IMG/VR virus record: IMGVR_UViG_2541047121_000026
Strand: one strand, 5' to 3'
DNA length: 8,011 bases
Source of the DNA: a virus
Lineage: Duplodnaviria; Heunggongvirae; Uroviricota; Caudoviricetes
The position numbers were made by a program. This document shows positions 3,001 through 6,000 of the stretch, piece by piece (positions within the stretch are counted from its first letter, which is position 1; each line of letters starts with the position of its first letter).

Positions 3001-6000
3001 CGAACGAAGTAATGAACATGTGGCTTCAGTCGCTGGTGAATAATGAACGCGATGAATCAACCGCAAGATTAATATTTGCCGTTTCTGAATTACTGGATAG
3101 TTCAACCAGCAAAATAGAGAGCATATCAGAGAAGATTAACGGCTTATCAGGTCACGCTATCGGAGAATAAAAATAATGAAACTTAAATATCCTGGCTTAA
3201 CTGCCAGCGGCAAAACTCGCACTAAATTCATGTGCGGGGATATTTACCGCGATAAGTACGGCGGCACGGTAATGATTAAGGGCGTGGAGGAACGGCGCGT
3301 AACTTACCGCCGTGAAGGCTACGAATATGATTGCGTTATGCCTGTTTATCAGTTCAACCGTGATTTTTCTCTGGTACAGGCAGCGCCCCGCAGTAAGCCA
3401 ACCAGCAGGGAGAAAGCACGCGCCAATATTCAGGAAATAAAAAAGATGCTTAACGTATTCAGGGGTAAGAAATGAAACTGGCACCGAACGTAAAAAAACA
3501 GCCACGCGGAATAAAACACAAAGACACAGAGGTGATTATTTTCGCGGGTAGTGATGCGTGGGCACATGCAAAACAGTGGCAGGAGCAGGACGGCCCCGCA
3601 TCCGGCGATAATGTGCCTCCTGTGTGGCTTGGGCCAAATCAGCTTGCCGAACTTTATGCACTGCAAATTGTTCCTGATGGAAAAAAACGCGTAAGGCTGT
3701 ACCAGGCAGGAGAACTGGACTTGGTGGAGACCAAAAAGATTGGTCAGAAGCTGGCGGCGGCAGGCGTACAGGATGCAAAATTTTACCCCGAAGGAATGCA
3801 CGGTCAGAAGTGTGAAAACTGGCGGCGCTATCTGAATGCTGAGCGTGAAAATATTGCCGCAGGGCTTACCATGCCGGAGCAGAAAAATACGCAACTGGCA
3901 CAAATGGCAGACAGTGAGCGCGCACAGATGCTTGCTGGTCGATTTGATGGCGTTTGTGTACATCCTGAAAGTGAAATCGTTCACGTATGGCGCGGCGGGG
4001 TATGGTGTCCGGTCAGCACAATGGAACTTAGCCGCGAAATGGTGGCGATCTATTCAGAGCACAGGGCCACTTTCAGCAAACGCGTGATCAATAACGCCGT
4101 TGAAGCGTTAAAAGTTATTGCCGAACCAATGGGGGAGCCGTCCGGCGATTTGCTGCCGTTCGCCAATGGTGCACTTGACCTGAAAACGGGGGAATTTTCC
4201 CCGCACACGCCGGAGAACTGGATCACCACGCACAACGGCATTGAGTACACGCCACCAGCACCAGGGGAGAACATTCGCGACAACGCGCCAAACTTTCATA
4301 AATGGCTTGAGCACGCAGCCGGAAAAGACCCGCGCAAGATGATGCGTATATGTGCCGCGCTGTACATGATTATGGCGAACCGGTACGACTGGCAGATGTT
4401 TATTGAGGCCACCGGAGACGGCGGGAGCGGTAAAAGTACATTCACACACATAGCCAGCCTTCTGGCAGGGAAACAGAACACCGTAAGCGCGGAGATGACG
4501 TCACTCGATGATGCAGGAGGGCGCGCGCAGGTTGTCGGGAGTCGTCTTATCGTCCTGGCTGACCAGCCGAAATATACAGGCGAAGGAACGGGCATCAAGA
4601 AAATCACGGGCGGCGACCCCGTGGAAATTAACCCGAAATATGAAAAGCGTTTCACGGCGGTAATCAGGGCGGTGGTGCTGGCGACCAACAACAACCCGAT
4701 GATATTCACCGAACGGGCCGGAGGCGTGGCACGTCGTCGGGTTATTTTTCGCTTTGACAATATCGTTAGCGAGGCAGAAAAGGACAAGGATTTGCCGGAG
4801 AAGGTCGCGGCTGAAATCCCTGTGATTATCCGCCGCTTGCTGGCTAATTTTGCTGACCCTGAAAAGGCACGGGCTTTATTACTGGAACAGCGCGACGGTG
4901 ATGAAGCACTGGCGATAAAGCAACAGACAGATCCGGTTATTGAGTTTTGCCAGTTCCTGAATTTTCTGGAGGAAGCGCGCGGCCTGATGATGGGTGGCGG
5001 TGGCGATTCCGTGAAGTACACGACCAGAAACAGCCTTTACCGCGTCTATCTGGCGTTTATGGCATACGCAGGAAGAAGCAAGCCGCTAAACGTGGCTGAT
5101 TTCAGCAAGGCCATGAAGCCAGCGGCGAAAGTTTACGGACATGAATATATTACGCGAAAAGTTAAGGGAGTAACGCAGACCAACGCAATTACAACGGATG
5201 ATTGTGACGCGTTTTTATAATTTTTTGTAAAAGCCCTCTACCCCATCTACCTGAATGAAATAAACGCATATTATTCAACATGATAAGTGGGTAGAGGGAT
5301 AGGTAGAAGGCTAATAAAACCCCTCTACCCCCTCTACCATGATTAAGGTCGTTTGTGAGGGGCGGGTAGAGGATGGGTAGAGGGCCACGAAAAGTCCTCT
5401 ACCCATCTGAAAGCCGCGCCATTACTGACCTGAAAGATGATTAGGTAGAAGAGGTAGAGGAGGTGCACCACAACCTAAAACTTTTTAAACGAGGGGGGTA
5501 AAAATAAATGTGCATACATCAAAATCACTTAACAAACATGCCGACCGAAAACATGAATCAGGGGCGACAAATGACCAAAATGCGCAGAGACAGAACACAG
5601 CAAAAATATAAAGCGTTAGACATGACAGAGCTTTCCCTAAAGGTGGCAATCAAAGTTATAGACCGCCACACACGGGAAGGATACGCGAAGGAGAATCCCG
5701 AACTAATAAGCGCATTCATGACCACGGCGGCGGCAAACTTTGCCACGCTGACAGAGCGGGAGATTGCAGAAGCGGAACAGGTAACAACCATCAACGTTAA
5801 AAGCACTGGAGAATAACCGAAGGAGTGAGCACATAGCCGGAGCAATCCGGCTTTTTTTCGATCTCTCATATCTTAAAAAATGGTTGATTAATGATAATCT
5901 ATCGAAAATACTGATTATGCGATGATAAGTATCAGGAGGAAACAAAGTGGAAGAGATAAAGCAAAGCGCTACCGTGATGATTGATCACGAGATCCTAAAC

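Follow-up and report, generated by a model that had tools for sequence, protein, structure and literature searches.

Phage-inducible chromosomal islands (PICIs) of Gram-negative bacteria have their replication origin in the region immediately 3′ of the initiator gene, as described by Fillol-Salom et al. (2018, ISME J; PMC6092414). In that work, the rep gene and putative ori of EcCICFT073, placed together on a temperature-sensitive plasmid, gave colonies at the restrictive temperature, and the rep mutant gave zero colonies (PMC6092414). In the Staphylococcus aureus pathogenicity islands (SaPIs), Rep is a self-loading superfamily 3 (SF3) helicase whose C-terminal winged helix recognizes 6–12 iterons lying just after rep; the SaPI origin has an AT-rich center with at least two iterons per side in opposite orientation, and both binding and melting by Rep are independent of ATP (PMC9371898). 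In P4, the genome record places the cis element crr 46 bp past the alpha stop codon, over 300 bp and with ten 8-mers in both orientations, and lists a separate ori with six repeats about 4.5 kb from crr. Here we describe the corresponding region of IMG/VR virus record IMGVR_UViG_2541047121_000026, a stretch of 8,011 nt (the window, throughout), in which an array of eleven short repeats follows pri-rep, the gene for a 582-aa helicase-initiator (Pri-Rep). This array is very probably the replication origin (ori) of an Escherichia coli PICI, bound and opened by Pri-Rep. Origins of this kind have already been described and tested in the close relative EcCICFT073, and the repeat variant of the window, the arrangement of its array middle and its shorter packaging module leave the kind of element unchanged; only a possible specificity switch between Rep and the iterons is new relative to published work.

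An iteron array downstream of pri-rep

The 8-mer GGTAGAGG occurs in eight exact copies in the window, every one of them inside 5235–5460, with starts at 5235−, 5290+, 5322−, 5331−, 5365+, 5376+, 5396− and 5453+. A search allowing one mismatch adds three copies within the array (5244−, GGTAGATG; 5302+ and 5444+, both GGTAGAAG), and outside it finds only two singletons in the window, at 3373 and 5034. The features of the array and its borders are as follows.

3472..5220, + strand: pri-rep, 582-aa SF3 helicase-initiator (Pfam, TIGR01613, P4 alpha and 7OLA matches)
5235..5242, − strand: iteron 1, GGTAGAGG, exact match
5244..5251, − strand: iteron 2, GGTAGATG, one mismatch
5252..5288, no strand: AT-rich spacer between opposed iteron pairs, predicted melting site, 24% GC
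5290..5297, + strand: iteron 3, GGTAGAGG, exact match
5302..5309, + strand: iteron 4, GGTAGAAG, one mismatch
5322..5329, − strand: iteron 5, GGTAGAGG, exact match
5331..5338, − strand: iteron 6, GGTAGAGG, exact match
5365..5372, + strand: iteron 7, GGTAGAGG, exact match
5376..5383, + strand: iteron 8, GGTAGAGG, exact match
5396..5403, − strand: iteron 9, GGTAGAGG, unpaired, exact match
5407..5427, + strand: conserved non-iteron block CTGAAAGCCGCGCCATTACTG (conservation in relatives)
5444..5451, + strand: iteron 10, GGTAGAAG, one mismatch
5453..5460, + strand: iteron 11, GGTAGAGG, exact match
5477..5490, + strand: conserved A/T tract AAAACTTTTTAAAC after the last iteron pair (conservation in relatives)
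5491..5510, + strand: Shine-Dalgarno sequence GAGGGGGG (5491–5498) and ATG (5508) of the next open reading frame (ORF), conserved in relatives

Shuffled sequences predict 0.07 copies of GGTAGAGG and none of 200 shuffles reached eight, so that chance occurrence of the repeats was rejected. The 6-mer core GGTAGA is found 11 times in the window against 1.75 expected, all within the 222 bp from 5237 to 5458. The same concentration is seen in related loci: in 369 kb of sequence, the 300-bp stretches after rep hold 149 copies of GGTAGAGG and the other 344 kb a single one.

Direct counting bears out much of a first-pass annotation of this region, which had listed eight perfect and three one-mismatch copies in both orientations, in pairs 9–12 bp apart, beginning 14 nt after the stop codon. 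Start-to-start spacings within the pairs are 9, 12, 9, 11 and 9 bp, one copy being unpaired, and 14 nt separate the stop codon (5218–5220) from the first 8-mer at 5235. Two of its statements needed adjustment. The inverted 10-mers that it had placed around a 44-bp spacer are present and perfect (CCCTCTACCC, 5234–5243, and GGGTAGAGGG, 5289–5298), with a gap of 45 nt rather than 44. The repeat it had given as an 8-mer is better described, in functional terms, as a site of about 10 bp, R-GGTAGA-N-G-R.

Because the 45-nt gap includes the degenerate copy at 5244–5251, we count the AT-rich stretch proper as the 37 bp from 5252 to 5288 (24% GC by direct count). Opposed pairs flank it, with the reverse copies at 5235 and 5244 on one side and the forward copies at 5290 and 5302 on the other; further sets follow downstream. 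The 30-mer at 5258–5287 is among the least stable ~2% of all 30-mers of the window, and this stretch is the predicted site of melting. As single-stranded DNA, the region folds far better than its shuffles (z = −5.9), a value that we do not take as a sign of structured RNA or DNA because inverted repeats produce it anyway. An Rfam scan of the whole window gave no match.

Outside the iterons, the block at 5407–5427 is the best-conserved part of the array. Its GCCATTACTG segment is present in 43 of 64 unique arrays and CTGAAA in 50 of 64; the latter also stands after a repeat in both units of P4 crr, and CATTACTG is found between repeats in P4 ori. The A/T tract begins 16 nt past the last iteron pair; its AAAACTTT is shared by 50 of the 64 unique arrays, and in P4 crr an A8CT6 tract follows an iteron pair in each unit. 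The tract may be part of the origin and not just a leader for the next gene, whose Shine-Dalgarno sequence and ATG at 5491–5510 mark the right-hand limit of the non-coding origin region.

Comparison with described origins

The array aligns over its full length with the intergenic region of EcCICFT073 and is, on this alignment, the orthologue of the EcCICFT073 ori. In both EcCICFT073 and EcCIIHE3034, a Pri-Rep of 582–584 aa is directly followed by the same 11-site architecture. EcCICFT073 shares with the window the use of both orientations, the opposed sets on either side of an AT-rich stretch, the non-iteron block and A/T tract, and the Shine-Dalgarno sequence and ATG of the next gene; its Pri-Rep is 91% identical to that of the window over the whole protein and 97% identical over the C-terminal domain. 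EcCIIHE3034, which has an array too, lies between cspD and clpS, like the closest relatives of the window. The differences concern the repeat itself, which reads GGTAGA-N-G in the window and GGTAGA-(C/T)-A in EcCICFT073 and EcCIIHE3034, position 8 differing at 11 of 11 aligned sites. They extend to residues 542 and 545 of the recognition helix (A/S in the window, N/G in EcCICFT073), to the array middle (forward-forward/reverse-reverse as against forward/reverse-reverse-reverse) and to the cargo, which is terS and a short capsid gene in the window but SSB, PerC, capsid and decoration genes in EcCICFT073.

P4 has a homologous initiator, 39.8% identical over the helicase and winged helix, the latter matching the P4 domain structure 1KA8. 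Its crr resembles the window array in lying just after the initiator gene and in having 8-mers in both orientations with some pairs 9 bp apart, and in both elements CTGAAA follows a reverse copy and an A/T tract follows a forward pair. The iteron words of this family begin with GGT or a close variant, as in GGTGAACA of P4 and GGTAGAGG of the window. However, the P4 type I octamer TGTTCACC (GGTGAACA) is absent as a repeat from the window; the two words have only the GGT start in common and differ in their 3′ halves, and the Edwardsiella repeat GGTGTTCA likewise differs from GGTGAACA. P4 requires two separate cis sites, ori and crr, whereas the window has one cluster in 8 kb; crr consists of two 120-bp direct repeats, whereas the window array has no internal duplication; and P4 alpha has an N-terminal DnaG-like primase part (PMC2777425), which Pri-Rep lacks.

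The array also has the layout of a SaPI-type origin, with 11 sites after rep and opposed pairs around 5252–5288, and both SaPI Rep and Pri-Rep are SF3 helicases with a C-terminal winged helix. SaPIs differ in having Gram-positive hosts and penta- or hexanucleotide repeats whose sequences are unrelated to those of the window. In SaPI5, PriRep is a putative primase fused to Rep (PMC9371898), a part missing from the window protein, and its homology to the latter is distant and confined to the helicase core. Theta plasmids such as pSC101, F, P1 and R6K, with initiators of the Rep_3 type, resemble the window in having initiator sites beside an AT-rich region, but theirs are direct repeats of 17–22 bp, whereas those of the window are 8–10 bp long and inverted as well as direct. 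Unlike these plasmids, the window showed no DnaA box, IHF site or GATC in 5201–5520, where a scan that included Fis-like sites also yielded nothing convincing. Moreover, its initiator is itself a helicase (D5_N and SF3 domains), and not a Rep_3 protein.

Conservation of the array among relatives

The same region was taken from E. coli genomes across the identity range, from the published EcCIIHE3034 and EcCICFT073, from 13 loci of other genera and from 68 metagenomic loci; 12 of the 13 other-genus loci were analyzed, L021 (a partial match at a contig end) being left out. An array with repeats in both orientations stands directly after the stop codon in 10 of 10 intact homologues from other genera, and about 60 metagenomic relatives likewise have one. 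Homologues without downstream iterons, which the first-pass annotation had counted against its own proposal, were not met with, an array being found after every intact homologue examined. In two further loci (L016, Providencia alcalifaciens; L020, Xenorhabdus vietnamensis), the gene is truncated or frameshifted before the winged helix, with no array beyond the premature stop codon.

Loci of E. coli, Xenorhabdus, Kluyvera and Atlantibacter share one conserved layout: two reverse copies, the AT-rich stretch, forward and reverse copies and a forward pair are followed by one reverse copy, the non-repeat block, the final forward pair, the A/T tract and, last, the ribosome-binding site that serves the next gene. 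The repeat word itself varies. The window and its nearest relatives have GGTAGAGG, and GGTAGA(C/T)A is the word of EcCICFT073, EcCIIHE3034, Shigella and Xenorhabdus. An 813-aa homologue of E. coli, Kluyvera and Atlantibacter has GTAGGGAT beside it, Edwardsiella has GGTGTTCA and four metagenomic loci have GGTATACA. Between the window and EcCICFT073, the six core positions of the repeats are 86% identical and the spacers 62%; between the window and Xenorhabdus, the values are 95% and 40%. Judged from these identities, selection acts on the repeats.

A few loci depart from this layout. In two metagenomic relatives whose C-terminal half is 71–73% identical (L073 and L075), the halves of the array are swapped: the half with the block (forward pair, reverse copy, block, second forward pair) directly adjoins the stop codon, and the AT-rich half lies about 60 nt later. 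At positions 2663–2830 of L015 (Xenorhabdus yunnanensis contig 79), the AT-rich stretch and the middle repeats are lost, so that this array is probably a decayed origin; the genome concerned has two more, intact copies (L012 and L019). Eleven repeats in both orientations surround an AT-rich stretch after rep also in the prophage-like island Sp7 of E. coli O157:H7 Sakai (L092, 6734–7103), between roxA and phoQ, which encodes a capsid. Its repeat word TGCGGGTTA and its initiator are unrelated to those of the window; the layout is the same and the specificity different.

The Pri-Rep initiator and its winged helix

Two segments of pri-rep are relevant to the recognition of the repeats.

4927..5193 (codons 486–574), + strand: winged-helix origin-binding domain, predicted iteron binder (match to 1KA8)
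5092..5133 (codons 541–554), + strand: putative recognition helix (helix 3), with A542 and S545 (AlphaFold2 secondary structure)

In the 582-aa protein, Pfam recognizes D5_N (residues 151–280) and the P-loop family DUF5906 (314–415), with Pox_D5 (485–573) just under threshold. The helicase core matches SaPI5 PriRep (7OLA) over residues 193–430 (E = 4.5e-15), and over residues 133–571 the protein shares 39.8% identity with P4 alpha. The name ‘primase, P4 family’ stems from the TIGR01613 model ‘primase_Cterm’, which covers residues 227–493. A primase catalytic domain was not recognized in the protein by Pfam, TIGR01613 or the P4 alpha alignment, and residues 1–150 match no Pfam family even at E ≤ 5. 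The N-terminal part of P4 alpha is a DnaG-like primase domain (PMC2777425); because the alignment with alpha begins only at residue 133, Pri-Rep lacks this part. Of the ‘primase/helicase’ named in the first-pass annotation, the SF3 helicase-initiator is therefore retained and the primase, for which no domain is recognizable, is not.

Residues 486–574 match the origin-binding domain of P4 alpha (PDB 1KA8) with E = 1e-5 in a single-sequence phmmer search and E = 4.9e-11 with a four-sequence profile. Two conserved tyrosines in helix 2 are typical of this winged-helix family (PMC2777425); here they are Y523 and Y526, invariant in the alignment of homologues. Single-sequence AlphaFold2 modeling of the C-terminal domain gave the expected succession of three helices and then a hairpin, helix 3 spanning 541–554. 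As the model is of low confidence (pLDDT 53), its secondary structure alone was used, and the DNA-facing placement of residues 542 and 545 follows general winged-helix knowledge. The weakness of the model reflects a protein search that listed near-identical sequences only, the best 120 database matches to the full protein all being at least 97% identical. The binding of the origin by the C-terminal part of the protein, as proposed in the first-pass annotation, is nonetheless supported by the orthology with the EcCICFT073 ori, the match to 1KA8 and the co-varying arrays described below.

Pri-Rep could then act as follows. On induction and excision of the island, it would bind the eleven ~10-bp sites (R-GGTAGA-N-G-R) directly, through the C-terminal winged helix. 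With sites facing each other across the 37-bp AT-rich stretch 5252–5288, the protein would assemble on either side as a self-loading hexameric SF3 helicase and open the AT-rich DNA, and host priming and polymerase functions would copy the excised circle. Reliance on host priming is suggested by the missing primase domain and by the EcCICFT073 replicon working in plain DH5alpha.

The N-terminal ~160 residues of Pri-Rep (residues 1–150 correspond to 3472–3921 of the window) are a portable module. Among close relatives, this module is mosaic (43–95% identity), whereas the remainder of the protein is 91–99% identical. In the Sakai Sp7 replication protein ECs_1582, an N-terminus 70% identical to this module (L092, 4601–5086) is joined to an unrelated remainder (DUF927 and a Cch-like helix-turn-helix).

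Co-variation of repeat and recognition helix

A comparison of iterons with the DNA-binding domain in related satellites, suggested earlier as a check, revealed co-variation between position 8 of the repeat and helix 3. Residues A542/S545 go with GGTAGA-N-G and N542/G545 with GGTAGA-Y-A, and more distant domains pair with GTAGGGAT, GGTGTTCA or GGTATACA. In the 16 unique arrays beside a helix 3 of the form NVA(D/E)FSK, the sites read R-GGTAGA-(G>A,T)-G-R, 142 of 165 having G at position 8; beside NVNDFGK (type B), the sites of 24 unique arrays read R-GGTAGA-(C/T>G)-A-R, and G occupies position 8 in 0 of 259. This association holds across about 80 loci, among which no discordant locus was seen.

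Over the last 75 codons, the window differs from type B by 15–18 synonymous changes, and the only shared replacements, A542N and S545G, fall on the second and fifth residues of helix 3. Identity between the two types is 95–100% in the helicase part, dips at 5047–5121 (the bin holding the helix), stands at 92–93% at 5122–5196 and falls to 47–79% across the array. A second, independent pair is provided by L081 and L082, whose domains are 87% identical: S changes to A at the same helix position, and GGTGTTCA to GGTATACA.

The type of iteron is independent of the mosaic N-terminal domain of Rep. It is also independent of the next ORF, the 5′ part of which is only 41–47% identical in L054 whereas the repeat type of the window is kept. 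Finally, the same type adjoins different packaging modules, namely terS with capsid in the window, SSB with PerC in L002, and SSB with a different capsid in L003.

We tentatively propose, at somewhat less than even chances, that the two helix residues 542 and 545 re-program positions 7–8 of the repeat and so create orthogonal Rep–ori pairs, and that the array is a fusion of two permutable modules. As to the latter, the left half may be P4-ori-like or SaPI-like and the right half, with its CTGAAAGCC...CATTACTG block, P4-crr-like. Neither the two-residue/two-base switch nor the two-module reading was found in the literature examined; a literature search for the repeat words, which did not reach the repeat letters in Fig. 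2a of PMC6092414, returned unrelated papers only. If the proposal is correct, there would be natural replication-specificity groups among co-circulating satellites whose helicases are 95–100% identical. The window and CFT073 types, two helix residues and two repeat positions apart, form a natural pair for studying how a winged helix reads its repeat, and orthogonality of the two would account for the independent replication of several related satellites in one cell.

Alternative explanations

The likeness to P4 raises the question of whether the array is a crr-like auxiliary element, an enhancer or platform for loading the initiator, with synthesis starting elsewhere in the island. P4 crr shares the position and scale of the array (46 bp past alpha, 300 bp, ten 8-mers), and the succession of forward pair, reverse copy, CTGAAA, forward pair and A4CT5 in the right half recalls one 120-bp crr unit. 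It would also suit an auxiliary role that deletion of the EcCICFT073 ori ‘significantly reduced’ colonies without abolishing them (PMC6092414). We nevertheless consider this explanation improbable: no second cluster exists, the GGTAGA core occurring nowhere else in the 8-kb window as against the separate six-repeat ori of P4; the left half, with opposed pairs around an AT-rich stretch, is typical of an origin proper; and rep with the putative ori of EcCICFT073 sufficed for plasmid maintenance. Slightly less credible again is a regulatory operator through which Rep or another island protein would control expression of, or read-through into, the downstream packaging genes, or an array that titrates Rep and so controls copy number. 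Plasmid iterons act in autoregulation and handcuffing, the array lies within a unidirectional operon, and 30 nt separate its last pair from the Shine-Dalgarno sequence of the next ORF. However, a scan of 5100–5700 found no promoter- or terminator-like site, the iteron type tracks the Rep helix and not the downstream ORF (as in L054), and a role of this sort would come on top of origin function, not in its place. A packaging (pac) site for the small terminase of the island is the explanation to which we give hardly any weight. Pac sites can contain repeats, and a TerS homologue is encoded about 1 kb downstream, but this reading does not fit because the same repeats adjoin different packaging modules (the window, L002 and L003); in addition, EcCICFT073 has a homologous array and no annotated terminase small subunit, and the repeats co-vary with Rep.

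Several points nevertheless weigh against an origin bound and opened by Pri-Rep. The experimental support comes from the EcCICFT073 ori, and not from the window array or its iteron variant, and the colonies left after ori deletion in EcCICFT073 count here as well. Other stretches of the window melt as easily as the AT-rich spacer, and the structure model of the C-terminal domain has the low confidence given above. Tight linkage could cause much of the association between helix and iteron, since the two lie 100–350 bp apart and linkage alone would yield it, and only a small number of separate switches underlie the association. That all eleven sites change in concert is a stronger argument than the association itself. 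For an origin, then, we rely on repeats that are conserved between spacers of 40–62% identity, on their change in concert with the helix, on the homology of the C-terminal domain to the origin-binding domain of P4 alpha and on the orthology with the rep–ori segment of EcCICFT073, which replicates a plasmid in E. coli. Direct binding by Pri-Rep, the melting site, the use of host primase and a role of residues 542 and 545 in specificity go beyond this and are inferred.

The island carrying the array

The remaining annotated genes of the window (gene calls and Pfam) all point rightward, with small ORFs between pri-rep and terS.

1–1239, + strand: tyrosine integrase (int)
1650–1859, + strand: AlpA (alpA)
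3176–3475, + strand: DUF4222 protein
within 6296–6925, + strand: small terminase terS, Terminase_2 domain
7088–8011, + strand: capsid protein

The best full-length match covers 97% of the window at 98% identity and is located between cspD/yljB and clpS. The closest relatives are 98–100% identical and occupy this cspD–clpS site, the window itself ending short of the flanks, and in a second strain direct repeats of ATGATAGTTAT flank the island. The same site and the att core ATGATAGTTAT are listed for EcCIIHE3034 and EcCI18098 (Table S1, PMC6092414). On account of its gene content, the site of its relatives and this published att core, the window is a PICI of the Gram-negative lineage.

Several E. 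coli O157:H7 genomes have an array region 100% identical to that of the window. The PICI whose origin the array marks is common in Shiga-toxin-producing and other E. coli. Among the 180 RefSeq E. coli genomes with the array, no listed record has an annotated feature under 5221–5507, and the origin is accordingly unmarked in public annotation. The practical value of recognizing it is modest, consisting in better annotation of satellites and in a defined cis element for satellite-based vectors. Up to three array-like places occur in one genome; that the array acts as an incompatibility determinant, as the first-pass annotation had thought plausible, is speculation.

The capsid-family gene at 7088–8011 encodes 307 aa; between it and attR lies about 0.9 kb with no annotated genes (L001, 11863–12738). 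Unlike EcCIIHE3034 at the same site, the island has no portal, protease or decoration genes, and its packaging module may be reduced or decayed. The ORF that follows the array (5508–5816) has a strong, conserved Shine-Dalgarno sequence, GAGGGGGG, ahead of its ATG at 5508, and its protein gave no family match. In O157:H7 records, RefSeq starts this gene at 5571, 63 nt inward, whereas in relatives the annotated start is near the upstream one.

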